A stretch of DNA of 64,000 nt from a virus (IMGVR_UViG_3300045988_183986); one strand, 5' to 3'. Positions 9,793 through 50,300 are shown, counted from the stretch's first letter. Notes: generated by a model not told the origin, from the sequence alone. Made by a program: numbers and translations.

Positions 9793-9845
9793 AGCGAATA
9801 CCTCCATGTTTTAAATTAGGTTAATGTTCGGACATCTATATAAAC

Positions 9846-14333: not shown

Positions 14334-15010
14334 TAAGCGGATGCGCCGTTGGCGTCAGGAGTCGTATTGGAGGCGGTCTCGGCAACGGCCTCTACCGGAG
14401 TTTCCGTGACAGTCTCTGCGGGAGAAGTGATATCCCCGGTGATTGTGGGGACGTTGGCATCTTCTGCGACCGACTCATTGACGGGCGCTTCAATAACCGC
14501 ATCCTTGACTCCATCAGCAGTCACTTTCTTTGCTGCGATTTTTGCGAAGTGCTCATTGCGCTTTTCACGGCAAGCCTTGCAGCGGGTGGGGAGCTTGTAG
14601 TCATGGACGACATACCAGTACAGCTCGCGATTGGTAAACTGCAGCTTCTGACCGCAATCTGCGCAGGTGTCTTCCAGACCGATGTTATCCAGCCCGCGCT
14701 TCACGAAGTCGCGATGAATTTTGCGGCATTCCGGGCAGCGGTTCGGCAGAGAATAACCGTGACTCTCGAAGAAATCGCGGTCACGATTGGTGATGTCGAA
14801 TTCATGACCGCAGTCAACGCACTTGCGGGTCTCAAACACCTCATTGCTCTTTGCATCAGCTTCCTTGCGAGCTTCATCCTCTGCGCGGTGTTTTGCGAAA
14901 TCGTCACGCATACGACACTCGCGGCACAGCACCTCGCTCTCATTGGCGGTGCTGAACGGCTTGTTGCACTTCTCACAGGTCTTGCGGAACTTCTTTGCTG
15001 CATCTTTCAT
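14333..15010 (-). CDS. triple zinc-ribbon protein, hypothetical
   Basis: Three CxxC-(N15-22)-CxxC units (CEKC..CREC; CVDC..CPEC; CADC..CKAC), each followed by an FTN/ITN motif. Acidic C-terminal tail. Confidence 0.5.
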   Translation of the reverse strand: MKDAAKKFRKTCEKCNKPFSTANESEVLCRECRMRDDFAKHRAEDEARKEADAKSNEVFETRKCVDCGHEFDITNRDRDFFESHGYSLPNRCPECRKIHRDFVKRGLDNIGLEDTCADCGQKLQFTNRELYWYVVHDYKLPTRCKACREKRNEHFAKIAAKKVTADGVKDAVIEAPVNESVAEDANVPTITGDITSPAETVTETPVEAVAETASNTTPDANGASA

Positions 15011-24208: not shown

Positions 24209-25168
24209 TTAAATTTCACCGCTCATGGTCAGCTTTGCACGAGCCATGATTTCATATCCTTTTGCATTTGCGGTTACATCCGTCAAGAAGAAAAGGTTCT
24301 TGGTGTCAATGGCTCGCTCGATGCTTTCGCGCATCATAGCAGAACCACCGCCCATAAAGATGAAATAGGATGTTTTGAAGTCGTCCTTGATTTTTTCGGA
24401 AATCGTACGAATCAATGCTGTTGCATAATTGTCTGCGGTTTCCTTGGCAATTTTCACGGCGTTTTCATCGACCAGCATGTTGTTGTTCCCTGCAAGGATT
24501 GCCTCAGCCATGTAGTCATCGACCGACAAGGAACAATGGACACGCAGCTCGCTCTCGACAGTGCTCAGGAGTTCAATGACTCCACGGTCATAGCTTTCGC
24601 AGAAAGAAAGGTCCGGAGCATAAGTGTTGCCACGACCAGAGAAACGAATCACATCCGTGGTATACCCGCCGATGTCTACGACATAAGAACGGGGATAGCG
24701 CTTGATTTCCTTCTGAATCTCGCTTGCTGCCGTAATAGAAAAGCCCTGAGGATAGACAAAGACATGCTTGACAGTAATCTCAAACGGGATATCTTTGTAC
24801 ATGAAATTGATGAGTTTCCCGCTTTTGCCGAAATACTCATCATACTTCGCTTTCAGGGACATATGCTGCGGGGGCAAGCCCATCGCGAGGCATACATCGT
24901 ATTTGTAGAATTTCTGATTGGGATACTTCTTTATAAGGTTCTTTGCTACGGCAATCAGCGTCAGCAAAAAGTAAGTATCATCCTTCGTCTTATCCTGCTG
25001 ATAAGGCGTGCGGCTGTCATTGAGAGAATAATACTTCCCCATATAGCACATCGTCTCTCCCTTGATAGCCGGTTCAGTCGTACCGTGACGAACAAGACCA
25101 GTGGGAAACGGCTCACAGCCAGGCGTCTTCATTGCCTTGTTTCCGGTATCTACTCCAATAATCTCCAT
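24209..25168 (-). CDS. parM: actin-like segregation ATPase ParM/StbA family
   Basis: ORF 24209..25468. Start MEIIGVDTGNKAMK with GGAGGA RBS (phosphate-1 motif). DIGGYTTDV (phosphate-2/adenosine motif). Confidence 0.7.
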   Translation of the reverse strand: MEIIGVDTGNKAMKTPGCEPFPTGLVRHGTTEPAIKGETMCYMGKYYSLNDSRTPYQQDKTKDDTYFLLTLIAVAKNLIKKYPNQKFYKYDVCLAMGLPPQHMSLKAKYDEYFGKSGKLINFMYKDIPFEITVKHVFVYPQGFSITAASEIQKEIKRYPRSYVVDIGGYTTDVIRFSGRGNTYAPDLSFCESYDRGVIELLSTVESELRVHCSLSVDDYMAEAILAGNNNMLVDENAVKIAKETADNYATALIRTISEKIKDDFKTSYFIFMGGGSAMMRESIERAIDTKNLFFLTDVTANAKGYEIMARAKLTMSGEI

Positions 25169-25279
25169 AAAAAATCCTCCGAACGAGTCGCAATATAGTT
25201 GAAAGTACGAATTTTGGGATACTCTGCGTGATAAAATATAAGTGTCTACCAGATAACAATGGGACTCACTGACTGATGT

Positions 25280-25390
25280 ATAGCGGTTGTTAAAACGGAA
25301 AGAACAACTAATATACAACTGCCTGTTGTTATCATGATACCACACATGCAGTTGTCCAGCAACGAACTTTTGTTCGCATAGACAACAAAA
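25280..25390. promoter_or_regulatory. cluster of GTTGT/ACAAC inverted repeats (candidate parC centromere / divergent operator region)
   Basis: GTTGTTaaaacggaaagAACAAC, ACAACtgcctGTTGT, GTTGtccagCAAC, gACAACa within ~110 bp between parM (minus) and the XRE gene (plus). Confidence 0.45.
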
Positions 25391-25406
25391 AAGAAAGGAG
25401 TTATTT

Positions 25407-25637
25407 ATGCCATCCACCTTTGATACCATGGTAGGAAAGCGAATCAAAAAGCAACGAATGGAAATCAATTACAGCCAAGAACAGTTGGCGGCAAGCACGA
25501 ATTGTTCCTATCGCTGCATCCAAAAATGGGAGTCAGGAAAGACGATGCCGCGAGCGCAGATGCTATGTAATTTAGCAAAAGCCTTACATGTTTCGTCTGA
25601 CTGGCTGCTGGGTATTTCCAATGACAGGAACGGTTAA
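25407..25637 (+). CDS. XRE-family HTH transcriptional regulator
   Basis: 76 aa. INYSQEQLAASTNCSYRCIQKWESGKTMP is a classic Cro/CI-type HTH. AAAGGAG RBS. Confidence 0.7.
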   Translation: MPSTFDTMVGKRIKKQRMEINYSQEQLAASTNCSYRCIQKWESGKTMPRAQMLCNLAKALHVSSDWLLGISNDRNG

Positions 25638-31223: not shown

Positions 31224-32759
31224 TTATTTTATATCGCTTGCGTTTTCGTCAGGTTCGATGTGCGCATTGTCATCAGCCTTCTCGATTGCAGGCAAACCGT
31301 GAATGTTGATATTGCGGTCGGTCTTAGCATTGATACTGTTCGCACGAACGATATCGGCCATATCGATACCGGTAGCTTCCTTGACAGTCTGCATGGTCTG
31401 TGCCATCAGCACGGGAACATTCCCAGACACGCCGGAAACGCCAGATGCATCGCCGCCGATGATAGATACCTTGTCGATTGCGGACAAGGGCTGAGCCACA
31501 TTCTTAGCAATATCAGGCAGGACCTTGATAAGCATTTCAGCGACAGCGGCATCGTTGTACTGCTTGTAAGCCTCCGCCTTTTGCTTCATAGCTTCGGCTT
31601 CAGCAATACCCTTCTGACGGATAGCCTCAGCTTCTGCCTTACCTACAAGGGCAATACCTTCGGCTTCCTGCTGCTTTGCAAATTTCTGAGCCTCAGCAGC
31701 GCGTTCGGCTTCGTATTTTTTTGCTTCTGCTTCTTTTTGGCGTTTATACAATTCGGCATCCGCAGCTTTGCGAACCTCTGCATCCAGTTTTCTCTGCTGA
31801 ACCTCGGCTTCCTGTGCAGCAAGGTCGACCATCTTTTTCTGCTTTGCGATTTCCGCATCAGCTTCGGCTTCTTTGATTTCCTTGGCGCGAAGATTTGTCT
31901 GAATCTGTCCTGCAGCGTTGGCATCAGCAGCAGCCTTGTCAGCCTCGGCCTTCAATTTGGCCTTTGCCAGCTGCAATTCATTGTTGCGCTGTGCAATAGC
32001 AGTCTGGGCTTCAACTTCCTTTTCATTGGCTGCCATTTCAGCGTCAGCCTTTGCGCGAGCAATATCACGAGCGGCTTCGGCACGAGCAATCTCTGCGCGT
32101 TTCTTGACGGCTTCTTCCTGCTCAATACCAATAGCCTCAATGACGCCGTGATTGTGACCTTGCGCATCGACGGCGTCTTTTACATCCTGCACATTGAAGG
32201 TCACAACTTCAAGACCCATTTTTGCAAGGTCAGGACGGGCATTTTCGATTACTGACAGCGCCATTTGTTTACGATTTGTGAGAATCTGGTCAACCGTCAT
32301 ATCCGAAACGATTTCGCGCAGGTTGCCTTGCAAGACATCATTTACTTTGTCATTGATGCCTTTTTCGTCCATGCCAAGGAAGTTCGAAATAGCCGACTGC
32401 TGACGACCCGTAATATATTCCTTGACATCCTTTGCACCAGATGCCTGAACCTCAGAGTCGAGAACAGTAGAATTATCGCTGTATACCTGAATCGTTACAA
32501 CAGAATCAATCCAGAGCGATACGCCTTCTTTTGTCTTGACACCCGTCTCAGGGGTTTTGACATCAATTTTCAGAAGACGCATATTCAGCTTATCTGCACG
32601 CTGCAGCACAGGGATGACAAATGTACCCTTTCCACAAACGACCTTGGGCTTTTTCAAGCCGAATCCAGTCACAACGATGGCTGCTGTGGGAGGCGCTTTT
32701 TTGTAGCATGTGAATGCGAACAAAACAAACAATACGACAATGATGATTCCTAAAAACAT
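31224..32759 (-). CDS. flotillin / SPFH (band 7) family protein
   Basis: N-terminal TM. SPFH core followed by long Ala/Glu/Lys-rich heptad region (AEAEA/KAEA repeats). 511 aa, typical of FloA/YqiK-type flotillins. Confidence 0.8.
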   Translation of the reverse strand: MFLGIIIVVLFVLFAFTCYKKAPPTAAIVVTGFGLKKPKVVCGKGTFVIPVLQRADKLNMRLLKIDVKTPETGVKTKEGVSLWIDSVVTIQVYSDNSTVLDSEVQASGAKDVKEYITGRQQSAISNFLGMDEKGINDKVNDVLQGNLREIVSDMTVDQILTNRKQMALSVIENARPDLAKMGLEVVTFNVQDVKDAVDAQGHNHGVIEAIGIEQEEAVKKRAEIARAEAARDIARAKADAEMAANEKEVEAQTAIAQRNNELQLAKAKLKAEADKAAADANAAGQIQTNLRAKEIKEAEADAEIAKQKKMVDLAAQEAEVQQRKLDAEVRKAADAELYKRQKEAEAKKYEAERAAEAQKFAKQQEAEGIALVGKAEAEAIRQKGIAEAEAMKQKAEAYKQYNDAAVAEMLIKVLPDIAKNVAQPLSAIDKVSIIGGDASGVSGVSGNVPVLMAQTMQTVKEATGIDMADIVRANSINAKTDRNINIHGLPAIEKADDNAHIEPDENASDIK

Positions 32760-35154: not shown

Positions 35155-35811
35155 TTAGCCTACTGCAGTTTCGTCAGCAGGGGCCTCGGACTCAGCAGCA
35201 GAATCGGCTTCGGCAGTATCCTCAGAGGAAGCCTCCTCAGTGGATTCGGCGGCATCGCCATCAGTCTCGGCGCTTTCAGCCTCGCTGTCGGAAGCCTCAC
35301 TGTCAGCAGCTTCGGATTCAGCAGTGCTCTCAGCCTCGGATGCAGCCGCTTCCTCAGCAGGCACGGAGGTAGCCACCAGCAGATTGCCCTCGGCATCAGC
35401 CTGACCACAGTTGTACAGATATGCGAACGCGGCGCTCAGATTGTCGAACTTGGACAGGTCAGGAACCTCAACAGTAGAACCGTCATCAGCGGTCTTGGTA
35501 CCGTCGAAATGAACGCTGCCATCCTCGTCATAGCGAACGGTGACGGTATAGCCATCGCTTGCCAGAGCCTCGGTCATATAAGCGGCATAAGCGTTCATGG
35601 TGGTCTTCATCTGGTCCTCGCTCAGAGAAACACCATCGGGCATCTCAGTCAGCTTGCTGTTATCCAGAACCTCAACTGCGGACTCACTGGTCGCGCCGCT
35701 TGCACTGGCAGCATCATCCTTCTTGCCACAACCAACAAATGCAGTGCAGGCCATTGCCATAGCGAGACACAGCGCAGCACCCTTCTTTACAGAACTCTTG
35801 TTAACCTTCTG
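35155..35811 (-). CDS. acidic lipoprotein, hypothetical
   Basis: ORF 35155..35862. Likely start MQKVNKSS with AAAAGGAG RBS. Lipobox LAMAMAC. SEAES/AESE acidic repeats at C-terminus. Confidence 0.5.
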   Translation of the reverse strand, partial: QKVNKSSVKKGAALCLAMAMACTAFVGCGKKDDAASASGATSESAVEVLDNSKLTEMPDGVSLSEDQMKTTMNAYAAYMTEALASDGYTVTVRYDEDGSVHFDGTKTADDGSTVEVPDLSKFDNLSAAFAYLYNCGQADAEGNLLVATSVPAEEAAASEAESTAESEAADSEASDSEAESAETDGDAAESTEEASSEDTAEADSAAESEAPADETAVG

Positions 35812-35875
35812 CATGAGTAACTTCTCCTTTTTCATGTGTGTTTGTTTGATGTGCATAAACAAGCTTCATGCACTA

Positions 35876-35990: not shown

Positions 35991-38900
35991 TTACTGCTTC
36001 TTTTCCTCGGTTTTATCCTCGGTCTTTTCAGCAGCTTTTTCTTCGCTATCGCCCTTCTTCTTCTTAACGATGACAAATGCGCCAACGCCAATCAGAGCAA
36101 CAACAACGATAACAGGAACGATGATGTCTGCGCCAAAACCAACGCCAGTCTTGTAGTTGACTACAACAGGTGCCGGAGTGGGAGCAGGTTCATTCTTGAC
36201 TACAGGAGTCGGAGTCGGTCTGCTTTCTTCCGGAGGATTCTCCAGCTTAACGCTTGCTACCCGGACATCGCCGTAGTTGCCTGCCTTATCGACTGTACGG
36301 GTCACAATGTAACCAGTCCAATCGGGGCTCAGCTTGAAGGTAACGTAACCGTTGTCCTTATCAATGCTTGTGACATTGACAGTCTCGAACTTGGTTTCGT
36401 CGAAGGTGTAATCGCCCTTAGCACTCTTGGCAATAGCAGAACCATTGACCTTGTAATACTGAATCTTAGCAACACCGGAGTTGTACTCGCCATCCAGAGC
36501 GGAGATAGCAGGAACGGAATCCTTGACCTTTACAACAGGCACGAAGTCGGGGTCTTCGGTATCATCCTTGCCACCGTTTTCGTCGGGAGTAGCAACGACA
36601 TCGTTACCGTTTTCGTCACCGGTCTCGTCGCCAGTTGTGAAGAGAGCGGGCTTGCCATGAGCAATACGAAGCGTAGTGGCTTCGGTCTTGTCATTGGTCG
36701 TTTCGGTCTTCTCGGACTCGGCGGGAACCTTCTCATCGGTACCGGATTCGGTTTCATCCTTCTTACCGGAATCTTCCTTCTTGTCGGTATCGTTCTTCTT
36801 ATCGTCCTTCTTATCGTTGTCCTTTTCGGGAGCCTTGCCGGTCTCTTCACCAGTAATGAACACATTGATGGTGCTCTCGAACTTGACAAACTTTTCGTTC
36901 AGCAAGTCGGTCTTATTGGTAGAATCAACCTTATCGGCAGCGAAAGCGGAAGCAACGACAGGAGCTTCGGTATCAAGAGAAGTGATGATAGTTCCCATCT
37001 CGGTAATGGCACCGGTCTTCAGGTCAATCAGGTAATAGGTAGAAGTAACCTTCTCACTATTAGCGGAAATGACCATCTTCTCGGCCCACTCAGCATCGGT
37101 CAGGGAATCGCTGGTTCCGATTGCGTAACCCTTAGGAGCGATAACTTCAACCTTAGAGTTGAAGTACAGGCCACTCAGGTCATCAGTCGTCTTCTTGGTA
37201 ACCTCAACAGGCTTACCGGTCTTTTCGTCAGCCACAGTACCAACGATAGTTGCGGGCTCTACATCGGCAAGATGCAGACGCTGAACTTCGAGGTCTCCGG
37301 TGGTAGGTAGGTAATTGTAGTTGTCGTAAGCGCCGCCAACATACTTGAAAGCGTCCTTCGTCAAGCCAACATTACCGAAGATACCATCGATGCTGGAAGC
37401 AACAATGAGTTCGAAGGAAGGCAGCTTAACGGTTTCAGCAGTCTCGTCGAAAGCGTAACCACTGGTCTTGATTTCGGGAATCTCCGTCTTAGTGCCATAC
37501 AGCTTGACGACGGGGTTCGGGTCGAGAGTAACCGTCAGGTCTTTACGAGCAATAACGAACTGACCATCGGCTTCGTTCTTATCGGCATCAACGACCTTGA
37601 TGGTTACTGCGTAATTCTGCTCAACAGCAGCATCGTAATCAGAAGTAACGGTGTAGGTGTAAGTACCAGCGTTCTTGACGTTTTCAGTCTTGAATTGGCT
37701 GTCACTCTCCACGCCGTCATCGCCGCTTGCGATATCAGGAGTCAGAGTAGCCTTTGCATCAGCGGTCAAGGGAGCAGTCTGTGCATTGTCGGTGGTCTTG
37801 TCGTTCTCGAAAGGAGTATAAACAAGTGCCATCTTCAGACCCAGAGAATCAGGTTTGACAGCTGCACCGTGTGTACCGTCGCCATTAGTGGCAACAGCAT
37901 TAACGGTGAAATCGGGGTTAGTGGTATCGCCATAGACGATATCCTTGGGCTCGGTGACAGTGACTTCTACCAGACGCTCGCCAATGGTGTAGACGCCATT
38001 GACAATCGTAATCAGGTAATCGTCATTGTCGTAAGAACCGACCATGTCGTATGCACCGTAATTCTTGACAGATTCGGGCACGCTCTCCGCAACCAGAGAA
38101 GCAGCACCATCAGCAGACTTCATGGAAATCTTTTCGGCAACCGCGTTCTCAACATCCTTCTGAGTGATGCTGATAATAGCTTTCAGGTCATCGCCATTTA
38201 CGATGGTCTTCTTATCGGCATCGCCAGTATAGGTAAGAGTATTGCTCAGTTCAGCCATTTCATTGCCGTAGACAGAACCAACAGTGCCGATGGTCCAAGT
38301 CAGAGGACGCTGAGTGACCGTGTAAGTGCCGTTCATAGCAGTTACCAGATAATCCTGATAAGAAGCTTGACCGACGCGGTGAGCCAGACCGGAGAAGGAA
38401 GGAACAATGTCATAGCCTCCGACATGGCTTGCAGAAGTGACGAGGCACAGGTTCGTGCCTTCCAGAATATCACCATTGACCAGAGCTGCCTTGGCAGTGT
38501 CACCAGTGTATTCCAGAACGTTCACGGTGCCGTAATCAGACCAATCTTCAACAGCAACATCGTCGCCATAGATAGAAGTCTGGGGCTTAGCGGTGACAGT
38601 GATGGGACGCTTGTCGATAACAAAATCAACGGGAGCGTAAACAAAGGTGTAGTTGTTTGCTGCGGCATTCTCAACATTTGCAGGAACGACCTTGCCGGTA
38701 CCAGCGTGAGAAGCTACCGTTGCGGGAGCTCCCTCAGCATCTGTGAAGTTGAAGGTCAGGTTTGCAATGCTCAGGACACCAGCATCATCAGGAGTGGTGT
38801 TGCCCTTGACGGGTTTCACAACGAATCCATCGAAAATCAGGTCGTCGCCGGAGAGAACAGGGTTCTCATCGCCGTAAATCTTGCTCTGGGGAGCCAGAGT

Positions 38901-41900
38901 AACATTCAGCGTAGCAGGAGTGATTTCAAAGGTGTTGTTTACGCGGGTGATATTGAAGTTGGCATCATCGCCCTCGATAATCATCGGGTGCTTGCCGACA
39001 TCTTCACCAGCATCGGTGCCAGCGTCAGGACGAACAACCTTCAGATTTGCAAGGTCGCCTGCATCCTCGCTCACATAGTAAGCGCCGTCACCAGTTGCAG
39101 TCCAAGTCAGTTCGGGGTCAGCCTCGCCGTAGACCTTCTTCTGGCCTTCGTCAACAACCACGATTACATCGCGCTTATCGACATGCAGAGAACCATCAAC
39201 AAAGACAATGGGGTCATAGTTCTTTGCGCCCTTGTTTTCCAGACCGCTCATGGTGATGACATAATCGCCAGCAGCAGGACGAGCAGGAATCTCGGACAGA
39301 GAACCGTCAGCATTCTTGATGTTGTAGACAACCGAGCCAGTGAATGCGGAAGCAACGGTGTCATTGTTCTTCAAGCCAGTAACGGTGTAGCTGAACGTGG
39401 GAACGGTGCCGCCATAAATCATGGAGTAACCGCCAGCCACAGTAAAGGTGACCTTAACGGGCTTGATGGTCAGAGTAGCAACTTCCATAGCTTCGGGCTC
39501 GGTGGTGGAAGAACCAACATCGACGGAAGTGCCGGAGCCAGTCACGATGGTGATGGCGTAGTTGCCGTACTTGTTGTACAGAGTAGAGCTGATGGGATAT
39601 TCACCGACATCCTCACCGGCTTTGCGAGTGACAGAACCACTCAGAGCACCAGTAGTCAGTTCCAGCGTATTCTTCTTCAGACCATCGTTGGAAATGTTGC
39701 CGGAAATCTCGCTGTAAGAGAATGCGGGGTCTGCATCGCCGTAATCCTTCTCGTAGTTGGAGAAAGTCAGGGTGATGGGACGAGGAGTGATGGTGATGGT
39801 AGAATCAATCACCGTCAGGTCGTAGTTGGCAGGCTGTGCGTAGATAGCTTTCAGAGCATAAGTGCCAACGCTTGCGGAAGCAGAAGTTGCACCGGAAGTC
39901 AGGGTAATGCCCTTAAGAATCTTTTCGGCTTCTGCTGCCTGAACATCAGTAGTAGTCAGCAGACCAGTGCCGCCCTTGATGTAATCCTTCACGTTCATAG
40001 AAGTGAGGGTCTCACCATAGGTCTTTTCGGTTTCAAGCAGGTTGATAACGGCAGTACGCTTATTGATGGTGAAGCGAACATCATTGGTGAAGCTGATACG
40101 ATAGTTCTTTGCCATCGTCTGCTCATAGATGTTACCGCTGTAAATCGGATAAGTGCCAGCGTTCTCGCCTGCTTCACGGCTCAGACGAGCCTGTGCGAAG
40201 TCGGCCTTGGGTTCTGCGAAGCTGGTGGTGTTGTAGTCGAAGATGACATAGGTATCGTTGACTGCAAAGCTGGGGTCAGTCTCGCCGTAAGTCTTGGACA
40301 GGCCATAGCGAGGAGTGATGGTCAGGGGCATCTGATGAACAATCAGCATGTTCTTGCCATCGGGCTCAGACAGCTTAACGCTGTTTGCGGGCTGGTTATC
40401 CAGACGGAAGGTCAGGTTGTAAGAACCTGCATCGTACAGACCAGAAGCGTTCGCAGTAGCCTCAACGGCGATACGAACAACACCCAGAGAAACATCCTTG
40501 CCGTCCATCTTGATGTTGACGGTTTCGCCATCGTGGTAAATCTGAGTGCCATCGGAGGTATTCACGTTGACGGAAACTTCCTTGGCGATGGTATCGGGCT
40601 TCTTCTCACCGTAAGTAGTCTGCAGTGCGTTGAAGGTGACAGAGACATCAGCCTCGGTGACTTGGAACGTAGCCTGCGGAGCAATCGTTACGATGTAGTT
40701 GGGGTTCTCATCATAAGAGATGGTAGCCTCATAGTTGCCGACAACCGTAGTGGGGTCTTCCCACTTGGTCAGGTCGATGTGGATGTTCAGCGGGCTGCCC
40801 TGCGGGTCAACCACATTGATAGCCTGAGAACCGGTCTCGTCATACAGCGCATAGCTGGGGGTGTTCTTACCGGCAACGCCATACTTACGGACGCTGTTGG
40901 TAGTACCCTTGATGGTGACAGGCAGTGCATTGATAGTCAGCGTACCGCTTGTACCATCGCTGTAAGTGCCGGTATAAACGATGTTGTAGTTGGGGTTGGT
41001 GTAACCGGAAACAACAATAGGATAGGTACCGACACCAGTCAGCTTACCAACGGTATTGTCAACGCCATACTTGATGGTGACAGTGCCGCCCAGAGAAGCG
41101 ACGGTATCATGGATGCCGATTTCATCGTTGCTTGCGAAGTTCTTGTATTCCAGTGCGCCGGTAATGTCGGCATCGCTGGGATTCTCTGCGCCATACAGAC
41201 GCTCACGGTTCGGAACGGTGATGGTCAGAGTACGCTTGGTGATAGTGTACTTATCGGGAGCATTGAAGGTGATGTCGTAGTTCTTGGCGATTTCAGCAGT
41301 CTGGAACTGTGCATCGCTGTAAGCGTAAGAGCCAACAGTCTCGCCGACCTCACGAGTCACAACGCAGCCAGCAAAGTCGGAACCAACACGGCCACCCTTG
41401 CCATTGACGGGGTCAAGAGTAAAGGCAACGCCGCCCTTGGCATCACTGTCGCCGTAAACCTTCGTCTGACCGCCCATCACATTGATGGCGATAGGACGCT
41501 TGGTAACGGTCAGCTTGCTGTTGACAAAACGAACCAGATAGTTGTCGTAACGGTCGTAGTTCTTGCCATCGGCATTGGGGTCCCAGTCAGAAGACCAACG
41601 CTCCTGAGAAGCACCCTGCACAGATGCGCTGACGGTGTATTCGCCAACATTGGCAGTTGTAGGAGTGCCGCTGTTACCAGCCGCATCTACCATAGTAAAG
41701 CCAAGCTTGTCCTCGGTCAAACCGATGCTTGCCTGTGTATCGTTCAGCTTGAAACCTTCGATGGATTTAATCTTGCCGGAACGAGCAGCGCCATACATTG
41801 CGGACAGGTCATCGAGAGTGACAGTCAGCATTGCAGGATGGATGATGTACTTGCTGTTGATGACCTTGACGTCATAGTAAGCAGTGCATGCAGGGGGAAC

Positions 41901-43943
41901 TTCGACAGTCATCGGATATTCGCCAACATTCTTATTGTCGATATCCTGACGCTGTGTTGTCAGAACCATGCTGACCAGCTTGTTCACACCGTCATCAGCG
42001 GTGATGTCGGAACCGGCGACAATACGCTTATCGGAGGCCACTGCCTGAGCAGCACCGTTATAAGCAACAGCGTCGAAGGTGATGGTGGAAGACTTGCCCT
42101 TTTCAGCCTCACCATAGATGGCATCAATCTGGTCATTGGTGATGGTTACGTTACGCTTGGTAATTTCAAACGTTGCGGTAGCAAGGTTGATGTTATAACC
42201 ATTGATAGGCGCATTCGTCTGGATATTGCCGATTGTAACAGTGTAGCCACCGGGAGCAGAGGTGATGCTGGGCAGAACAACGGTGGGTTCACCGCTCAGA
42301 CCAAGCATCTCTTTCAGAGCAACTGCGTTGGACTTGTGCTCGTTGTTGGTCTTATACTCGAAATTGGTTTTATCGGTATCAGACCAACCGGTAATCACGA
42401 AGTCAACCTGAGGATTCTGCTGACCATACTGACGAGTGGCTTTGCTGCCGGTCGTCTGTACGCCATCATTGCCCTTGAAGACAAATACAGGAGTCAGGGT
42501 CAGAGTCTTTTCAGAAACGACAACATACACATCGCCGGTATTGGGCTGAATGTCGATGTTGTAGTTCGTGTTGCTCTTCGCGGAGGAACCTAAGATGATT
42601 TTGTAAGAACCGGTAGTGTCCTTATCGAAGTTCTCTGTGGTCAGAACATCCGCAGGAAGCAGGTCGCCGTCAACCAGACCACCATTGGTATCCATAACGG
42701 TGTAGTTAATCTGGCTGATGGTATTGCCCTTCGTAACATAGGTGGTATGAGGGACAATGTAAATCTGACGCTTGTTGATAGTCACACCCGTGTCATTGCG
42801 GATGTTCTTGGAAGAATCCAAGTTGGAACCATCAATGATGGTGTAATTCAGACCATTCACAGTAACGCTTGTGGCACCTGTATCAACATAAGTCGGATAA
42901 GTACCGGCATTGCAATGAATGTCTGTGGGATTCTGGCCGTCGCCATCAGCCGGAGCATACATGATGAAGCTCAGACCGTCGATAGCTGCCTGAATATCCT
43001 TTTCGACTTCCTGAGAAGTACGGGAATCAGCAGTGCTGTATTCGATGGTCAGACCCTTAGACTTGAAAGAGTCACCGTAGGTGTAGGTAACAGTCTGAGG
43101 CAGAATGCGAATGACATTCTCCTGACCGCTAATCTTGGTATACTGAATACCCGTGCCTGCGGCAATCTGCTTACCAGTCTCAGCAGCGGTGATTGCCTGA
43201 TAGTCCCCGATGACAGTCGTAGAACCGCCGCCATCAAACGCGCTGGCACCGCTGTTGTCTACGGGGTTTTCCTGACGGTCGCAAACCTGCAGATACAGGT
43301 CAGACATGTCAAGGTATGCATTCATGACGGGCTCGGCGACCTGCTCATCCTCGCTCAGAGAATAATACATGTCTTCAATGGGTTCCCAGTCATAAACTGC
43401 ATCCAGTTCCTCAGTGCGACGCGTGACCATCGCATCAAGAACCGCGTTTTCCTTGTCAGCCTGCCATGCCTTGCTTGCAAGACCGAAGTTGTTTGCAGCA
43501 GTCAGAATTTCATCTTTACGGCTTACAAGGGCGTTAGCCGCATCGATAAATGCCTGTGCTGCTTCACTGATGCTGCCAGTGGTAGAAGCTTCGCTGGAAG
43601 TGCTGGTGCTTGCACCAGTATCAGAGGCAGCACTGTTTGCGTAGGCAGTGGTCGTTTCAGACCCCGCCTGACTTGTAGCCTCAGAAGAAACATCGCTCGT
43701 CACAGAAGTGTCGCTGGACGCGGAACTTGCTGTGTCGGTAACATCGCTTTTCGGCGCGGGAGTAGTAGCGGAAGAGTCGGAGTTTGTTGTCGTAGTGCTG
43801 AGTGCATCAGTTTCCTTCGGAGCTTCTTCACTCTGCGTGATTCCACTCGCGCTCTCCACTGCATAAGCAGTGACAGGAGCAAACTGAGACAGGCACATTG
43901 CTACGGCGACAATCGCACTCAAAAACCGCTTACGAGGTTTCTG
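35991..43943 (-). CDS. giant cell-wall-anchored adhesin (~2,650 aa) with MBG (YGX-type) repeats and C-terminal N-Y-K-T-G sorting signal
   Basis: ORF 35991..44009. Start MQKPRKRFLSAIVAVAMCLSQFAPVTAYA (signal peptide, AGGAGGG RBS). Ser/Thr-rich N-terminal stalk. >15 repeats with TxTKRPxT...KxYGxxDP signature. C-terminus PTPAPVVVNYKTGVGFGADIIVPVIVVVALIGVGAFVIVKKKKGD. Confidence 0.85.
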   Translation of the reverse strand, partial: QKPRKRFLSAIVAVAMCLSQFAPVTAYAVESASGITQSEEAPKETDALSTTTTNSDSSATTPAPKSDVTDTASSASSDTSVTSDVSSEATSQAGSETTTAYANSAASDTGASTSTSSEASTTGSISEAAQAFIDAANALVSRKDEILTAANNFGLASKAWQADKENAVLDAMVTRRTEELDAVYDWEPIEDMYYSLSEDEQVAEPVMNAYLDMSDLYLQVCDRQENPVDNSGASAFDGGGSTTVIGDYQAITAAETGKQIAAGTGIQYTKISGQENVIRILPQTVTYTYGDSFKSKGLTIEYSTADSRTSQEVEKDIQAAIDGLSFIMYAPADGDGQNPTDIHCNAGTYPTYVDTGATSVTVNGLNYTIIDGSNLDSSKNIRNDTGVTINKRQIYIVPHTTYVTKGNTISQINYTVMDTNGGLVDGDLLPADVLTTENFDKDTTGSYKIILGSSAKSNTNYNIDIQPNTGDVYVVVSEKTLTLTPVFVFKGNDGVQTTGSKATRQYGQQNPQVDFVITGWSDTDKTNFEYKTNNEHKSNAVALKEMLGLSGEPTVVLPSITSAPGGYTVTIGNIQTNAPINGYNINLATATFEITKRNVTITNDQIDAIYGEAEKGKSSTITFDAVAYNGAAQAVASDKRIVAGSDITADDGVNKLVSMVLTTQRQDIDNKNVGEYPMTVEVPPACTAYYDVKVINSKYIIHPAMLTVTLDDLSAMYGAARSGKIKSIEGFKLNDTQASIGLTEDKLGFTMVDAAGNSGTPTTANVGEYTVSASVQGASQERWSSDWDPNADGKNYDRYDNYLVRFVNSKLTVTKRPIAINVMGGQTKVYGDSDAKGGVAFTLDPVNGKGGRVGSDFAGCVVTREVGETVGSYAYSDAQFQTAEIAKNYDITFNAPDKYTITKRTLTITVPNRERLYGAENPSDADITGALEYKNFASNDEIGIHDTVASLGGTVTIKYGVDNTVGKLTGVGTYPIVVSGYTNPNYNIVYTGTYSDGTSGTLTINALPVTIKGTTNSVRKYGVAGKNTPSYALYDETGSQAINVVDPQGSPLNIHIDLTKWEDPTTVVGNYEATISYDENPNYIVTIAPQATFQVTEADVSVTFNALQTTYGEKKPDTIAKEVSVNVNTSDGTQIYHDGETVNIKMDGKDVSLGVVRIAVEATANASGLYDAGSYNLTFRLDNQPANSVKLSEPDGKNMLIVHQMPLTITPRYGLSKTYGETDPSFAVNDTYVIFDYNTTSFAEPKADFAQARLSREAGENAGTYPIYSGNIYEQTMAKNYRISFTNDVRFTINKRTAVINLLETEKTYGETLTSMNVKDYIKGGTGLLTTTDVQAAEAEKILKGITLTSGATSASASVGTYALKAIYAQPANYDLTVIDSTITITPRPITLTFSNYEKDYGDADPAFSYSEISGNISNDGLKKNTLELTTGALSGSVTRKAGEDVGEYPISSTLYNKYGNYAITIVTGSGTSVDVGSSTTEPEAMEVATLTIKPVKVTFTVAGGYSMIYGGTVPTFSYTVTGLKNNDTVASAFTGSVVYNIKNADGSLSEIPARPAAGDYVITMSGLENKGAKNYDPIVFVDGSLHVDKRDVIVVVDEGQKKVYGEADPELTWTATGDGAYYVSEDAGDLANLKVVRPDAGTDAGEDVGKHPMIIEGDDANFNITRVNNTFEITPATLNVTLAPQSKIYGDENPVLSGDDLIFDGFVVKPVKGNTTPDDAGVLSIANLTFNFTDAEGAPATVASHAGTGKVVPANVENAAANNYTFVYAPVDFVIDKRPITVTAKPQTSIYGDDVAVEDWSDYGTVNVLEYTGDTAKAALVNGDILEGTNLCLVTSASHVGGYDIVPSFSGLAHRVGQASYQDYLVTAMNGTYTVTQRPLTWTIGTVGSVYGNEMAELSNTLTYTGDADKKTIVNGDDLKAIISITQKDVENAVAEKISMKSADGAASLVAESVPESVKNYGAYDMVGSYDNDDYLITIVNGVYTIGERLVEVTVTEPKDIVYGDTTNPDFTVNAVATNGDGTHGAAVKPDSLGLKMALVYTPFENDKTTDNAQTAPLTADAKATLTPDIASGDDGVESDSQFKTENVKNAGTYTYTVTSDYDAAVEQNYAVTIKVVDADKNEADGQFVIARKDLTVTLDPNPVVKLYGTKTEIPEIKTSGYAFDETAETVKLPSFELIVASSIDGIFGNVGLTKDAFKYVGGAYDNYNYLPTTGDLEVQRLHLADVEPATIVGTVADEKTGKPVEVTKKTTDDLSGLYFNSKVEVIAPKGYAIGTSDSLTDAEWAEKMVISANSEKVTSTYYLIDLKTGAITEMGTIITSLDTEAPVVASAFAADKVDSTNKTDLLNEKFVKFESTINVFITGEETGKAPEKDNDKKDDKKNDTDKKEDSGKKDETESGTDEKVPAESEKTETTNDKTEATTLRIAHGKPALFTTGDETGDENGNDVVATPDENGGKDDTEDPDFVPVVKVKDSVPAISALDGEYNSGVAKIQYYKVNGSAIAKSAKGDYTFDETKFETVNVTSIDKDNGYVTFKLSPDWTGYIVTRTVDKAGNYGDVRVASVKLENPPEESRPTPTPVVKNEPAPTPAPVVVNYKTGVGFGADIIVPVIVVVALIGVGAFVIVKKKKGDSEEKAAEKTEDKTEEKKQ

Positions 43944-44087
43944 CATGTTAGTTGCCCTCCTAATAATGTGAGTGTTCTGTGGTTTTACCACAGCCGGATT
44001 TATATACACCCTTACCTACTCCCTAGTGTGCAGCCTCGATTGTAGATAAGAAAGTATATCAAAACACAAGCAATCAAATTGCATATT

Positions 44088-44361: not shown

Positions 44362-44373
44362 TTGTTTTACCGC

Positions 44374-47300
44374 TTATTCAGCGGAATCATCCTTATGGTT
44401 ATCTTTGTTGTCGTTTTCGTCCTTCTTGCGCTTGTGGTTTACTACCACCAGAGCAGCGACGCCAATGCCAACCATTGCTACCAGCCCAACAATGCTCTGT
44501 GCAAATCCGATACCCGTCTTCTTGTTGCTCGTGAAGATAGAGAAGAGGGAGAAGGGTTTGCCGTCTACCTTGAAGATATCGAGCCAGCCAATCGGCGGGG
44601 TCTTGGGCTTCTCAGTAGGAACAGGGGTCGGAGTAGGCTTCGGGTTGTCGGGAGTCGGAGTCGGTTTAGGCTCGTCAGGCGTTGTGGGAGTAGAGGGTTT
44701 CACAACAGGGACTTTCACCTCGTTGGAAGGTTTCTCTACATCTTCATCAATCGGCTTGGACGGGTCCTTACCATGACCCGGATTCTCGGGGTCTTCGGGA
44801 TTCTGACCCGGAGCCTTAGCGACAGCCACGTTAATGACATCGTGTCCGGCATCCGCGTCAACGGCAACATAAGAATAGGTCAGAGTGAAGGATTCGCCAA
44901 CAGGGATACGAGCAATAGTGAACGTTGTCGTTGCGCTATTGTAAGTATATCCATCACCGTTCTGAGCTTCAATATGGCTTTCGCCGTCATTGTTGTCCTT
45001 TACGGTTACATTGACAAGGTCTACTTCACCAGTATTGGTTACTACCACACGATAATTGATGGTTTCACCGACATTGACTTTCGTCTTGTCAGCACTCTTC
45101 ACAATCGTGAGGCTCTTTTCGAGCGGAACATCCGTTTCCGTACCGGAACCCGGAACTTCCACATCGACCTTGTTGGACGGAATATCCGTATCAGGGTCAA
45201 TCGGTTTCGTCGGGTCTTTACCCTGTCCGGGATTCTCCGGGTCTTCAGGGTTCGTACCGGGAACATGAATCGTCGCTACGTTTTCAAGAATGTGCGTGGT
45301 CACATCGGCGATACCGACAGTATAAGCGTAGTGGACAACCACATCGCCGCCAGCAGGAATCGTGTCGATGGTGAATACACCATTCTCATAGTGATAACCA
45401 GCGCCATCCACTGCGAAAATGCTTCCGGAGAAGTTATTCTCATCAGTCAGAGCAGCATTCTGAATATCGTGGTCTTTGCCATTGTGTACCGTTACGGTAT
45501 AGGTGACAGTCTCACCCAGCTTTGCGACAGTCTTGTTTGCAGACTTCCAGATGGTGACAACGCCATCATCAGGCTTCTTCACATCGACTGTATTGGACGG
45601 GATATTATACTGCTCGCCATCGTGCGTGTACTTAATGGTTGCGGTATTCTCCATAACGCTCTCATCGGTCGTCTCTACCGTATAGGTATAAACGATATCA
45701 AGAGCCTCACCGGCATCCAGATAACCGATAGTCCAAGTACCGTCTCCGTTATAGGTATAGCGGTTAGAACTCTCAGCCGTAACATCACCCGCAAAGTTGT
45801 TATGGTCTGCGACAGTGATATCGTTTACGGTTTTGTCTGTCGTATTCTTCACCGTAATGGTGTAGGTCACAACATCTGTCACCTTAGCGATATACTTATC
45901 GGCATCCTTTTCAACATCGATAGGCGGTGTCGGGTCTTTCACAACAGCAGCGTTCAGAACCTTAGGAGCATCAGCGGTAACTACCACATAGGTGAAGTTA
46001 AGCGTTACGCTCTCGCCAGCCTTTACAGTGCTGATGGTATAGGAGTTGTCGCCGTTATCCGCAACACCATCCATAGGTACGAAGTTGAGCGTTCCGTTGC
46101 CATCGAAGAAGTCTTCGACAACAACATTTTCCGCATCAATCTTGCCCTTGTTGGCGACAGTAACCATATAGTTGAGCGTATCGCCAACCTTGGCTTCTGC
46201 CTTATCAACGGACTTGGTGATTTCGATTACAGGAATCTCTGTTTCGGTTTCAGAGCCGGAAACTTCCACATCAACCTTGTTGGACGGAATCTCCGTATCG
46301 GGGTCAATGGGTTTCTCGGGGTCTTTGCCGTGACCCGGATTATTCGGGTCTTCGGGATTCGTGCCGGGAACATGGATTGTTGCAATGTTTTCGAGAATCT
46401 GCGTGGGCACATCAGCAATTTCAACCGTATAGGTGTAGTGGATAACCACATCACCGCCTGCGGGAATCTTATTGATTGTGAATTCGCCGTTCTCGAAGGT
46501 GTAATCTGCACCTTCAACGCTTACGATTTCGCCAGCAAAGTTGTTGGTGTCTGTCAGACGAGCGTTTTCGATGTCGTGATTCTTTCCGTTATGAACCGTG
46601 ACGGTATAGGTTACAACCTCACCCGGCTCAGCCTTTGTCTTATCTGCAGCCTTGCGGATGGTAACAACACCATCATCGGGCTTCTCGACATCGACGGGGT
46701 TAGAGGGGATATTGTAATCTGTGCCATCCTTGCTGTAAGTCACATTTGCAATGTTTTCGATGACGGTGGCATCCTCAGCCTGCATCGTATAGGTGTAGGT
46801 GATATGGATGGTCTCGCCAGCGGCAATAGTCGGAATAGTCCATGTCTTATTGCCATTGTAAGTGTACTTGTCAGCGTTTTCGGCCTTGATTTCGCCCTTG
46901 AAGTTGTTAGTATCGGTGACAGTTACATTGTCAACAGGCTCAGAAGTGGTGTTCTTCACGGAAATCGTGTAGGTTACAACCTCATCAACCTTTGCAATGT
47001 GCTTGTCGGCTTCCTTCTCGACGTCAACAGGCGGTGTCGGGTCTTTGATTACTGCGGCGTTCAGTACGAGAGGTTCGTCTCCTTCAACTACAACATAGCT
47101 GAAACGAAGCTTTACGCTCTCCCCTGCCTTGACCGTAGAAATAGTGTAGGTGTTGTCTCCGTTATCTGTCACACCATCCATGGCCTTGAAGTTCAGCGTT
47201 CCGTTTCCGTCAAAGAAGTCCTTAATCAGGATATTCTCAGCATCCGCGTTACCGCCGTTCTTGACAGTGACGGTGTAGTTTAGCGTATCACCAATCTTGG

Positions 47301-50300
47301 CAGTAGGCTTATCTACAGACTTGGTAATAGAGATTTCCGGAATCTCGGTCTCAACTTCGGAACCGGGGACTTTCACTTCGACCTTATTGGACGGAATGTC
47401 CGTATCGGGGTCAATAGGTTTATCCGGGTCCTTGCCGTGTCCGGGATTCTCAGGGTCTTCCGGATTCGTGCCGGGCACATGTGCCGTGGCAACATTTTCC
47501 AGAATGTGAGTGGGTACATCTGCAATCTGCACCGTGTAGGTGTAGGTTAGAACGGCGTCTGCACCAGCAGCAATCTTATCGATTACAAAGTGTCCGTCAA
47601 CGAACTTGTAGCCGACACCATTTGTGCCGGTAATCGTTCCAGCAAAGTTGTTGGAATCGCTTACGACCACATTGGTGATGTCATGCGCCTTGCCGTTGTG
47701 AATCGTAACCGTGTAGGTCACGACCTCACCGGGCTCTGCAATCTTCTTGTCACCGCTCTTGACAATCGTAACTTCGCCATCCTTCGGAACAACGACTTCA
47801 ACGGGGTCTGCCTTGATGACATACTCGCCGTCATCGGTCGTGTAGCGAACATCAGCTTTGTTGACCAGTGTAGAGGGGTCGGTAGTCTTCACCGTATAGG
47901 TGTAGAGAATATCGATGCTCTCACCAGCCTTGATGCTGGGGATAGTCCAAGTATGGTTGCCATTGTAGGTGTACTTGGCGTTGTCTTTAGAGGTGATTGC
48001 ACCTGTAAAGTTGTTGGTATCGCTGACCAGCAGGTCGGTAACGGTCTTATCAGTCGTGTTCTTCACCGTGATGGTGTAGTTGACGACTTCATCGACCATC
48101 GCCACATGCTTGTCTGCGGTTTTCTCGATGTCAATGGGAGGAGTCGGGTCTTTCACAACAGCAGCGTTCAGGACCATCGGTGCATCTCCGGCAACGACCG
48201 TGTAAGTGAAGCGGAGCGTAATGCTCTGACCCTTCTCCACATTCGCAACCGTGTAGGTGTAATCACCGTTATCCGTCACACCGTCCATCGGAACGAAGTT
48301 CAGGACACCGTTACCGTCAAAGAAATCCTTGACGATAGCGTTCTTGACTGCCTGTCCGCCAACATTCGTCAGCGTAATCGTGTAGTTCAGCGTATCGCCA
48401 ACCTTGGCTTCCGTTTTATCTACACTCTTAACGATTTCGAGCTTGCCTTCCGGCACATCAACATGCGTGCCGTCACCGGGAACCTCAACATCGACCTTGT
48501 TGGAAGGAATCTCCTCATCAGGGTCGCCGGGGTTCTTGCCGGGGACATGAGCCGTTGCAATGTTTTCAAGAATCTTGGTCGGAACATCGGCAATCTGGAC
48601 TGTGTAGGTGTAACGGACCACTGCGTCACCGCCAGCAGGAATCTTGTCAATGACAAATTCGCCGTTGGTGAACTTGTAGCCAGCGCCATCTACGCCTTCA
48701 ATCTTGCCCGCGAAGTTGTTCGCGTCAGTCAGACGGACATTCTTGATGTCGTAATCCTTACCGTTGTGAATTGTAACCGTATAGGTAACGACCTCGTTCG
48801 GCTCAGCCTTGGTCTTGTCGGCAGTCTTAAAGATGGTAACGACACCATCGTTAGGCTTTTCGACTTCGACGGGGTTGGACGGAATATCGTAGTCAGTACC
48901 GTTGTAGCTATAACGCACATCGGCAGTGTTTTCAATGACAGTTTCATCGCTTGCCTGCATCGTATAGGTGTAGGTAATGTCGATGGACTTGCCGGATTCG
49001 AGCGTTGCGATGGTCCAAGTCTTATCACCGTTGTAGGTGTAGCCCTTGCCATCTTTGCCTTCGATTTCGCCCTTGAAGTTGTTCGTATCGCTTACCAGCA
49101 GATTCGTCAAGGTGTCCTTGGAATTGTTCTTCACCGTAATGGTGTAGGTAACAATCTCATTAACCTTAGCGATATGCTTGTCTGCGCTCTTCACAATATC
49201 CGTGGACGGTTTGGGAGTTGTGATGACTGCCGCGTTCAAAACCTCAGGTGCGTCACCGTCAACCACCACATAGGTGAAGTTAAGCGTTACGCTCTCGCCA
49301 GCCTTGACACTTGCAATCGTGTAGGTGTCATCACCGTTATCGGTGACGCCATCCATAGCCACGAAGTTCAGTGTGCCCTTGCCGTCGAAGAAGTCCTTGA
49401 CCATGACATTCTCGGCATCGCCCTTACCGTTGTTCTTGACAGTAATCGTGTAGTTCAGGGTATCACCGACAGCGGCTTCACTCTTGTCTACACTCTTCGT
49501 CAGAACAAGGTCAGGAATCTTGGTTTCTGTCTCGGAACCCGGAACCTCAACATCGACAGGATTCGAAGGAATCTTCTCATCGTTATCGATAGGCTTATTC
49601 GGGTCTTTACCGTGACCGGGGTTGTTCGGGTCTTCGGGGTTCATTCCGGGAACATCAGCCGTAGCGATGTTTTCCAGAATCTGAGTAGGCACATCACCAA
49701 TTTCAACCGTGTAGGTGTAGGTCAGAGTGACCGAAGCGCCTGCGGCAATCTCAGCGATATGGAACTCGCCGTTCTCGAAGGTGTAATCTGCGCCGTCAAC
49801 ACCAGTGATTTCACCAGCGAAGTTGTTGGCATCAGTTACTACAACATCGTGAACATCGAAGCCCTTGTTGTTGGTAACGGTTACATTGTAGGTGACGACC
49901 TCACCCGGCTTAGCCATCTTCTTGTCCGCTTCTTTGTGGATGGAGACAGTGCCCTTATCGGGTACGACCACATCGACAGTCGGCGTATCAAGTTTCACGG
50001 TATCGCCGTTCTCGGAATACGTCACATCAGCCTTGTTCTCGAGGAGCTTCTCATCATTGCTCTGTACCGTGTAGGTATAGGTGATGTTGATAGTCTCCCC
50101 TGCTCCGATTTCCGGAATCGTCCAAGTGCTATCGCCGTTATAGGTGTACTTATCTGTATTGGCGGCATTGATGCTGCCAACAAAGTTATTGGTATCCTTG
50201 ACAGTGACATTCGTCTTTGCTTTGGTATCGGGGTTATACACGCTGATGGTGTAGGTCACGATTTCATCGACAAATGCGAACTTCTTGTCAGCCGTCTTGG

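Follow-up and report, generated by a model that had tools for sequence, protein, structure and literature searches.

How are two giant surface proteins fixed to the cell when neither ends in an LPXTG sorting signal, and which sortase would act on them? The question is raised by IMGVR_UViG_3300045988_183986, a 64,000-nucleotide stretch of DNA (the window) that appears to be part of a Hodor conjugative megaplasmid from the human gut and that encodes the two giants, here called g1 and g2, together with a class B sortase. Our best reading of the sequence evidence, to which we give a probability of roughly 0.55, is that the plasmid's class B sortase processes the C-terminal signals of both proteins, NYKTG in g1 and NKKTG in g2. 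We count the module and the sortase-anchored reading of the giants as already known, since both were published by Yuan et al. (bioRxiv, February 2026; PMC12934698). That paper names both giants "putative sortase-anchored surface proteins," leaves their sortase as "class A and/or B," and in its main text gives no motif sequence for them and assigns no sortase. Added here are a definition of the motif across lineages (T-G invariant, probably derived from NPxTG), an argument for class B over class A, and the probable lipoprotein nature of the plasmid's "trigger factor."

The C terminus of g1 reads, in order, RPTPTPVVKNEPAPTPAPVVV-NYKTG-VGFG-ADIIVPVIVVVALIGVGAFVIV-KKKKGD-SEEKAAEKTEDKTEEKKQ and then the stop, and the C terminus of g2 reads KPTPTPVPTEKPKTPP...FTS-NKKTG-IGFA-QSIVGLVAMVGIGVAALVVV-NHKRKKD-ENDNKDNHKDDSAE and then the stop. 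The original prediction had described on both giants a Pro/Thr-rich stalk, the peptides VNYKTGVGFG and SNKKTGIGFA, a hydrophobic segment of ~20 residues, and a basic tail. Our translations agree with this description, giving hydrophobic segments of 22 and 20 residues, and both NYKTG and NKKTG lie inside the intervals it had named (35991-36180 and 44374..44560). Each C terminus has a pentapeptide ending in T-G, 15 to 25 hydrophobic residues, and a C-terminal K/R cluster, which is the tripartite layout of cell wall sorting signals (CWSSs). An N-terminal Sec signal peptide is seen directly in g1, in which the mechanical open reading frame (ORF; 35991..44009) begins at a GTG (44009) and the functional start is M22, followed by a typical Sec signal peptide; for g2, a signal peptide is seen in the related locus L131 (MQKGKTWQRVASAVLAVMMTM...). 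The statement that no LPXTG is present holds for sorting signals, but an internal LPTTG does occur at residue 2234 of g1 (37296..37310, minus strand), 384 residues ahead of the real signal. Because no hydrophobic segment follows it, this LPTTG is a chance match and not a sorting signal, and it is a trap for pattern-based LPXTG searches.

The likeness of the two C termini is not due to chance. Given each protein's own composition, N.KTG[VI]GF is expected ~1e-8 times per position and ~2e-7 times within 15 residues of the hydrophobic segment. The looser pattern [KQP]TG[VI][GD][FLV] is expected 0.013 times in g1 and 0.034 times in g2 and is observed once in each, at the C terminus; it is found in no other window ORF of at least 80 amino acids (aa). 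The search for further motif-bearing proteins that the original prediction had proposed, run on the same ORFs, thus recovers the motif once per giant and yields no third protein. A BLASTP comparison of g1 with g2 gives an alignment over internal repeats only, at ~26% identity, and the C termini lie outside it, which indicates that the shared motif is not residual global similarity. Based on these comparisons of sequence, we conclude that the C termini of g1 and g2 are bona fide predicted tripartite CWSSs, far beyond chance.

What is conserved in this signal was defined with 12 distinct homologous giant C termini from five related lineages. T-G is invariant in all 12 and keeps a constant spacing to the hydrophobic segment, while the sequences on either side have diverged; mean column identity is 38%. 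The residues after T-G are [VIMN]-[GD]-[FLV]. Position P4 is N in 8 of the 12 signals and Q or P in the rest, P3 is Y, K, A, S, or P, and P2 is K, Q, P, A, or G. The window has NYKTGVGF (g1 type) and NKKTGIGF (g2 type). The sister Hodor lineage, in which the sortase is 75% identical (L117 to L120, on the same contigs as L089 to L092), has QAPTGVGL and NKKTGIGF, and P0056 has a g2-type NKQTGIGF. In the L127 lineage, with P0060 and P0063, the g1-type signal is QSKTGVDL and the g2-type signal is PSKTGVGL or PSKTGVGV. L129 has NPATGNDF in both types, and the termite gut relative L130 has NPQTGIDF (g1 type) and NPGTGMDF (g2 type). Written with flanking residues, four of the signals read PVVVNYKTGVGFG, FTSNKKTGIGFA, AAQAPTGVGLS, and RDPSKTGVGL. 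The original prediction had proposed N-[YK]-K-T-G as the shared motif, and this is not the consensus: orthologues have QAPTGVGL, QSKTGVDL, PSKTGVGL, and NKQTGIGF, so that only T-G is invariant.

To which class of sorting signal do these sequences belong? The canonical LPXTG signal is absent, with no L-P at P4-P3 in the window signals or in any of the 12 homologues. Compared with the NP(Q/K)T(N/G) signals of class B sortases, both window proteins have N at P4 and K-T-G at P2 to P1', and in place of Pro at P3 they have Y (g1) or K (g2); Pro at P3 is found only in the more distant L129 and L130. Since the aligned position in these distant relatives holds NPATG, NPGTG, or NPQTG, the Hodor signals are best read as degenerate descendants of an NPxTG, sortase B-type signal in which Pro has been lost, which bears out the sortase B-like layout, with Y or K replacing Pro, that was first proposed for the locus. 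Known class B motifs include NPQTN (Staphylococcus aureus), NPKTG (Bacillus anthracis, cleaved between T and G), NAKTN and NPKSS (Listeria; PMC8225981 for NAKTN), (S/P)PxTG (Clostridioides difficile SrtB, cleaved between T and G in vitro), and QVPTG, EVPTG, and VPPTG (class B pilus sortases of group A streptococci). All of the Hodor family signal variants fall, by sequence, inside this motif space. The window signals differ from the QVPTGV class in having K at P2; only the g1-type QAPTGVG of the sister lineage resembles QVPTGV, and it has no NCBIfam signal model match at E values up to 1. Signals of other sorting systems were also sought with the NCBIfam exosortase PEP-CTERM, rhombosortase GlyGly-CTERM, and archaeosortase PGF/Loki-CTERM models, and the only match was a subthreshold Loki-CTERM hit to the g1 hydrophobic segment (14.7 bits versus 19.9); genes for an exosortase or a rhombosortase were likewise not detected in the window. 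A profile of four 53-residue signals searched against a 5.8-billion-protein index gave one irrelevant 39-aa match, such short signals being below the reach of the method.

The window sortase, which had been assigned to the SrtB type from its motifs, belongs to class B (MEROPS C60B) on the evidence of both its sequence profile and its predicted fold. The residues H209 (GHS), C303 (LILSTC), and R312 (TR), which are the predicted catalytic residues, are invariant in 19 homologues. NCBIfam TIGR03064 matches the protein at 78.1 bits over profile positions 9 to 235 of 235, with an equivalog cutoff of 153.75, and Pfam gives no match. A match that is end to end and nevertheless below the cutoff suggests a divergent class B subfamily rather than an equivalog of SrtB from S. 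aureus or Bacillus. The family is small, with 43 proteins in 5.8 billion. When a profile of the family was searched against the PDB, the 15 best matches were all class B (E values of 1.6e-45 to 2e-21); the anchoring SrtBs from Bacillus, Listeria, and Clostridium come closest, and Spy0129 is last, at 2e-21. The AlphaFold2 model (pLDDT of 75.6, with the catalytic domain mostly >90) has a membrane helix at residues 69 to 96 and a helix at residues 269 to 282 between strands 244 to 257 and 297 to 303, which is in the beta6/beta7 loop; a helix in this loop is a class B trait (PMC11231552). The 19 best Foldseek matches of the model are all class B (E values of 3e-16 to 2e-11), and classes A, C, and E appear only from 5e-7, ~5 orders of magnitude behind.

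The sortase had been described as the only one in the window, and no other was found there. It is not, however, the sole sortase of the element, since all Hodors have a class A sortase and those of group G1 a class C sortase as well, both encoded elsewhere on the plasmid (PMC12934698). A tblastn search with S. aureus SrtA and a scan for catalytic motifs detected no second sortase in the window or in most of the Hodor and relative loci, the set for these two scans being without L131 to L136, which lie upstream of g2. The 7.5 kb upstream of g2, as represented by L131 and L133, was examined by separate ORF listing, and no other sortase was seen there. Across the window and its flanks (~95 kb), including 10 kb beyond the sortase and 7.5 kb upstream of g2, sortase-like genes are represented by the class B gene alone, so that the additional sortases nearby that might have explained anchoring differently were not encountered. 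Other CWSS-bearing genes were not found within 10 kb of the sortase in the contexts of P0009, P0020, and P0037.

The sortase had also been placed next to the giants, which does not hold for the window, in which it lies ~25 kb from g1. In the sister lineage the arrangement is compact: in L117 (3242..20736; also in L118 to L120), g2, g1, six small genes, SecY/G/E, the trigger factor-like gene, and the sortase follow one another uninterrupted on the same strand, with the g1 stop at 11137 and the sortase start at 19732, which is a distance of 8.6 kb. Compared with this cluster, ~22 kb intervenes in the window, including the ParM and flotillin genes (Table 1). The sortase and the giants are on the same contigs in both Hodor lineages examined, and they are among the few genes common to both Hodor groups (PMC12934698). 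Linkage extends to a termite gut relative, in which the contig that carries the sortase (L123, sortase at 10001..10807, 38% identity, same subfamily) overlaps L130 (10001..24847) at 99.65% identity; here the sortase is ~17 kb upstream of the giants, a 3,970-aa g2-like protein ending with NPGTG and a 923-aa protein ending with NPQTG. More distant relatives of the sortase were examined at 80 genome loci (≤41% identity, mostly Oscillospiraceae). At 11 of the 80 loci, neighbors end in NPQTG, NPKTG, NPDTG, NPETG, NPHTG, SPKTG, SPNTG, VPKTG, or PPVTG followed by a transmembrane segment and a basic tail, and LPXTG-ending neighbors were found at none of the 80.

A different sortase-linked surface cluster is present in L125 (10001..20091) and L126, in which the sortase, another member of the subfamily, is 42% identical. 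The sortase is followed there by a pair of small genes, a pair of Peptidase_M73 (camelysin/TasA-like) genes, and a gene for a protein of >2,165 aa that runs off the contig.

Compared with known class B systems, the pair formed by the window sortase and its candidate substrates has both familiar and unusual properties. The S. aureus SrtB-IsdC, B. anthracis SrtB-IsdC, and Listeria monocytogenes SrtB-SvpA/Lmo2186 systems have the same sortase class by sequence and fold, and their NP(Q/K)T(N/G) signals share with the window signals N at P4, K at P2, T at P1, and G at P1'. Listeria NAKTN is a precedent for proline-less signals and shows that some systems can do without Pro at P3 (PMC8225981). The SrtB-IsdC-type systems differ in that they act on small NEAT heme-binding substrates encoded in an iron-regulated operon, whereas the window encodes giant repeat adhesins on a plasmid, with Tyr or Lys at P3, Q or P at P4 in some orthologues, and a conserved [VI]-[GD]-[FL] after the Gly. 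C. difficile SrtB is likewise a clostridial-type class B wall-anchoring enzyme for adhesin-like proteins, with K or Q at P2 in its signals, and it is among the top fold matches; in contrast to what the window signals would need, it requires Pro at P3, and it is chromosomal and the only sortase of its organism. Likeness to the pilus sortases of Streptococcus pyogenes (SrtC1/Spy0129 and SrtC2) lies in the sister g1 QAPTGVG, which is nearly QVPTGV, and in the T-G-V that window g1 has in common with it, while these enzymes polymerize small pilins and need SipA, and the window signals have K at P2. PrgB/Asc10 of pCF10 is an LPXTG-anchored aggregation protein of a conjugative plasmid that uses the host class A sortase, and the accessory Sec system (SecA2/SecY2), a dedicated translocon copy for very large surface proteins, exports giant serine-rich adhesins. 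These resemble Hodor in concept only, as a mobile element that displays a large wall-anchored adhesin and as a dedicated translocon copy. No SecA2 or glycosyltransferases were seen in the window, and its SecY is of the canonical type (330 bits) and not SecY2 (150 bits, below cutoff).

If the class B sortase does act on g1 and g2, the giant precursors would be exported by their N-terminal Sec signal peptides through SecYEG, possibly through the plasmid's own SecY, SecG, and SecE, and their folding on the outer face would probably be helped by the plasmid's lipoprotein trigger factor-like FKBP foldase. The C-terminal hydrophobic segment and K/R cluster would retain the precursor in the membrane. 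The membrane-anchored sortase (Cys303, His209, and Arg312) would then cut [N/Q/P]-x-[K/Q/P]-T-G-[V/I]-[G/D]-[F/L] between Thr and Gly, and the Thr carboxyl would be transferred to the peptidoglycan cross-bridge or to lipid II of the Bacillota host. The outcome would be the display on the wall of proteins of 2,650 and 7,300 aa, plausibly adhesins that aid mating-pair formation or colonization.

Several observations weigh against this pathway. The NCBIfam LPXTG_anchor model TIGR01167 scores 12.2 bits on the g1 tail, below its cutoff of 15.9, and does not match g2 at all, and the sortase scores below the TIGR03064 equivalog cutoff. The conservation of P3 and P4 is looser than is usual for the signals of a single enzyme, and C. 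difficile SrtB did not cleave the proline-less peptide NVQTG in vitro. The 14 to 18 charged residues beyond the K/R cluster in g1 and g2 are atypical for sorting signals. Finally, there is the distance of ~25 kb between the sortase gene and g1 in the window, together with the presence of other sortases on Hodor plasmids.

The last two points would fit a different enzyme. A housekeeping-type class A sortase, encoded by the plasmid or by the host, might process the signals, with the class B enzyme serving other substrates or another step, and T-G followed by a hydrophobic P2' is compatible with LPXTG-type cleavage chemistry; all Hodors encode class A and group G1 class C sortases, and the published description leaves the choice between A and B open (PMC12934698). 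Nevertheless, we consider this unlikely: L or I followed by P at P4-P3 is found in none of the 12 homologous signals, the class A motifs in the literature are LPXTG, LPXTA, and LPKLG, and the relatives carry NPxTG, which is a class B hallmark. Moreover, no sortase gene other than the class B one lies within ~95 kb, and in the sister lineage that gene forms one uninterrupted cluster with the giants. The low scores of the NCBIfam sorting signal models and the variability of P3 and P4 could instead mean that there is no cleavage, and that the C terminus is a permanent transmembrane anchor in which TG[VI]G[FL] is a structurally conserved juxtamembrane or helix-start packing motif. Helix ends often carry small-residue motifs of the G-x-G type, and the charged residues past the basic cluster look like a genuine cytoplasmic domain. 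This we regard as rather improbable. T-G is invariant exactly at P1/P1', the motif comes directly after a wall-spanning Pro/Thr stalk, which is the arrangement of wall-anchored proteins, and Hodor groups and distant relatives alike have kept a dedicated sortase along with the giants. The relatives have full NPxTG motifs, and in L127, L129, and L130 the proteins stop just past the K/R cluster, which is how classical sorting signals end.

A further alternative keeps the class B sortase as the acting enzyme and makes it a polymerase or ligase that would build a fiber by linking one giant, through its Thr, to a Lys in the other giant or in a small neighbor protein. The resemblance of the sister g1 QAPTGV to the QVPTG(V)/EVPTG pilin signals of the class B pilus sortases of group A streptococci points in this direction, as do the organization of the giants and small neighbor genes as one operon and the class C sortase of group G1 (PMC12934698). 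On the other hand, MBG/DUF11 repeat proteins of 2,650 and 7,300 aa do not resemble pilins, the window showed neither a SipA/LepA-like gene nor a pilin-type protein, and the nearest PDB matches are anchoring SrtBs, with Spy0129 ranking last (E value of 2e-21). We think a ligase very improbable, and wall anchoring of g1 and g2 by the class B sortase is the reading that we prefer.

Table 1. Features of the window bearing on the giant proteins, the sortase, and their surroundings
Feature	Coordinates	Strand	Remarks
Class B sortase, 323 aa	9972..10943	minus	Acidic cytoplasmic N-terminal extension of ~65 residues; membrane anchor at ~69-96
Trigger factor-like FKBP foldase	10955..12118	minus	Predicted lipoprotein signal peptide and lipobox (…IALTAC/SKD)
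SecE-like small membrane protein	12175..12426	minus	Orthologues in L081 and L121 carry Pfam SecE PF00584
SecG-like small membrane protein	12423..12677	minus	Weak TIGR00810, 20.1 bits versus cutoff of 30.85; SecG in PMC12934698
SecY translocon subunit	12693..14033	minus	TIGR00967, 330 bits, cutoff of 253.6
Conserved "hyp," zf_Tbcl treble-clef domain	14333..15010	minus	Pfam; heads the Sec row; same position in L081 and L121
ParM/Alp7A-like partition gene	24209..25468		
Flotillin gene	31224..32759		
Small lipoprotein gene directly downstream of g1	35155..35862	minus	Kept in relatives (L127 orthologue); in giant-protein operon per PMC12934698
g1 giant surface protein	35991..43946	minus	~2651 aa from M22; MBG (YGX-type) repeats; from ORF list
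g1 basic stop-transfer cluster KKKKGD plus unusual 18-residue Glu/Lys-rich extension	35994..36065	minus	KKKKGD at 36048..36065
g1 hydrophobic membrane-spanning segment ADIIVPVIVVVALIGVGAFVIV, 22 residues	36066..36131	minus	
g1 sorting motif NYKTG plus conserved VGFG	36132..36158	minus	NYKTG at 36144..36158; predicted cleavage T/G
g1 Pro/Thr-rich stalk RPTPTPVVKNEPAPTPAPVVV	36159..36221	minus	
g1 N-terminal Sec signal peptide MQKPRKRFLSAIVAVAMCLSQFAPVTAYA	43860..43946	minus	Read from sequence; same N terminus in orthologues L127 and L128
g2 giant surface protein	44374..64000	minus	Listed as 44374..63945; open to window end, N terminus beyond
g2 basic cluster NHKRKKD plus 14-residue acidic/Lys extension	44377..44439	minus	
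g2 hydrophobic segment QSIVGLVAMVGIGVAALVVV, 20 residues	44440..44499	minus	
g2 sorting motif NKKTG plus conserved IGFA	44500..44526	minus	NKKTG at 44512..44526
g2 Pro/Thr-rich stalk	44593..44700	minus	

Outside their C termini, the giants are built of repeats. Pfam MBG_2 matches g1 in seven stretches (166 bits). The part of g2 inside the window is >6,541 aa, and the full-length cluster representative P0055 is 7,323 aa; the protein has MBG_2 repeats, ~22 DUF11/CLIPPER repeats, ~20 DUF7507 repeats, and CARDB-like domains. The domain makeup of g1 and g2 is that of giant surface proteins in Gram-positive bacteria. When the last 399 residues of g2 were searched exhaustively with HMMER, 4,353 relatives were recovered, and among the top 150, many end in LPxTG-, LAxTG-, or xPxTG-type sorting signals. 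Long antisense ORFs lie on the plus strand inside the giants, at 47590..59943 (4,117 aa), 37695..42593 (1,632 aa), and 44362..47283 (973 aa); most likely these are not genes but arise mechanically from a coding strand that is repetitive and biased in composition. The sortase N terminus is acidic over ~65 residues and the giant tails are rich in Glu, Asp, and Lys (36047..35994 and 44377..44418), and a cytoplasmic tail-to-tail interaction is conceivable.

The sortase stands at the end of a same-strand row that consists of "hyp," SecY, the SecG-like and SecE-like proteins, and the trigger factor-like FKBP protein. This Sec-sortase row is kept where the sortase is 95%, 75%, and 70% identical, and the trigger factor and sortase B genes are reported to be cotranscribed (PMC12934698). 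The same paper treats the FKBP protein as a trigger factor chaperone. TIGR00115 matches it at 170.9 bits over profile positions 108 to 371 of 410, PDB trigger factors align with it only from approximately residue 77 to 125 onward, and it is without the ribosome-binding N domain of trigger factor. A lipobox is kept in three lineages, as …IALTAC/SKD in the window, …CLTAC/SK, and …LSLAAC/SN (L117, 18559..19731; L121, 8826..9980). The lipobox and the missing ribosome-binding domain indicate that the "trigger factor" is probably an extracytoplasmic PrsA-like lipoprotein foldase, which is more likely than a ribosome-associated chaperone.

A TnpB/IS605 OrfB gene near the Sec row (15863..16966, plus strand; OrfB_IS605, Cas12f1-like TNB, and HTH domains) interrupts a long run of minus-strand genes as the only one on the plus strand. 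L081 to L083, in which the sortase is 95% identical, lack this gene at the equivalent position, and it looks like a recent insertion between conserved genes. Downstream of the sortase (1..9000, minus strand) are genes for a radical SAM protein (2231..3016), a DUF1281_C/Api92-like protein (3996..4793), and PIN7 (6994..7662), and several small membrane proteins are encoded at 8460..9810; this gene order is kept in L081 to L083.

That the 64-kb window is part of a Hodor appears from its gene content, its protein sizes, the contig sizes, and the source, which were matched against the description in the preprint only. Hodors are conjugative megaplasmids of 211 to 389 kb from the human gut that were formerly filed as huge phages (PMC12934698). 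They are described as having a hyp-SecY-SecG-SecE-trigger factor-class B sortase region and two giants of 7,309 to 7,704 aa and ~2,642 aa with MBG domains, signal peptides, and the motif/transmembrane/basic-tail architecture, the giants and small neighbor genes forming one operon (PMC12934698). The window contains the same row, two giant MBG proteins, and small neighbors, and between its module and the published one there is structurally no difference. IMG/VR matches to the window at 98 to 100% sortase identity are human gut contigs of 240 to 346 kb (including 240,696 and 345,980 bp), the sister lineage includes an IMG/VR contig of 389,222 bp, and a 95%-identical sortase occurs on Hadza gut assemblies. 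Local GC content is 44% to 51% among the loci examined, from which the window is not assignable to G1 or G2. Rep_3, ParA/ParB, and a type IV secretion system (VirB4, VirB6, and VirD4) are Hodor traits that lie outside the window and the examined flanks (PMC12934698).

The alternative that the element is a huge phage, as the listing of these contigs as viral in IMG/VR would have it, was rejected. Among 20 window proteins there were no PHROG structural or packaging matches, there are no tRNAs or Rfam matches, ParM is present, and TerL is missing from most Hodor members, which do have ParM (PMC12934698). No phage or plasmid record was matched by megablast with 25 kb of the window, the plasmid sequences matched by the sortase and SecY in tblastn searches are all ≤45% identical and unrelated to Hodor, and the best phage record match of the sortase is 33% identical. 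The termite gut element is a distant relative outside the human gut, and it encodes, near its giants, Phd/PIN and BrnT/BrnA toxin-antitoxin pairs, DnaE, and a RepB primase.

If the class B sortase processes proline-less signals, then the mobile element brings with it a complete route for surface display, consisting of translocon, foldase, and anchoring enzyme. Tentatively, we go further and suggest as a possibility, though a doubtful one, that Hodors carry a self-contained export and anchoring pathway, made up of their own SecYEG, an extracytoplasmic lipoprotein foldase descended from trigger factor, a divergent class B sortase, and a private proline-less signal, that would be independent of the host LPXTG machinery and would allow adhesin display in any Bacillota host. 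If true, relaxed specificity at P3 and P4 would widen the known recognition range of class B sortases, and the signal might serve as an orthogonal ligation tag. Such a route would also help to explain how a 350-kb plasmid works in phylogenetically distant gut Bacillota, and it could underlie broad-host-range conjugation.

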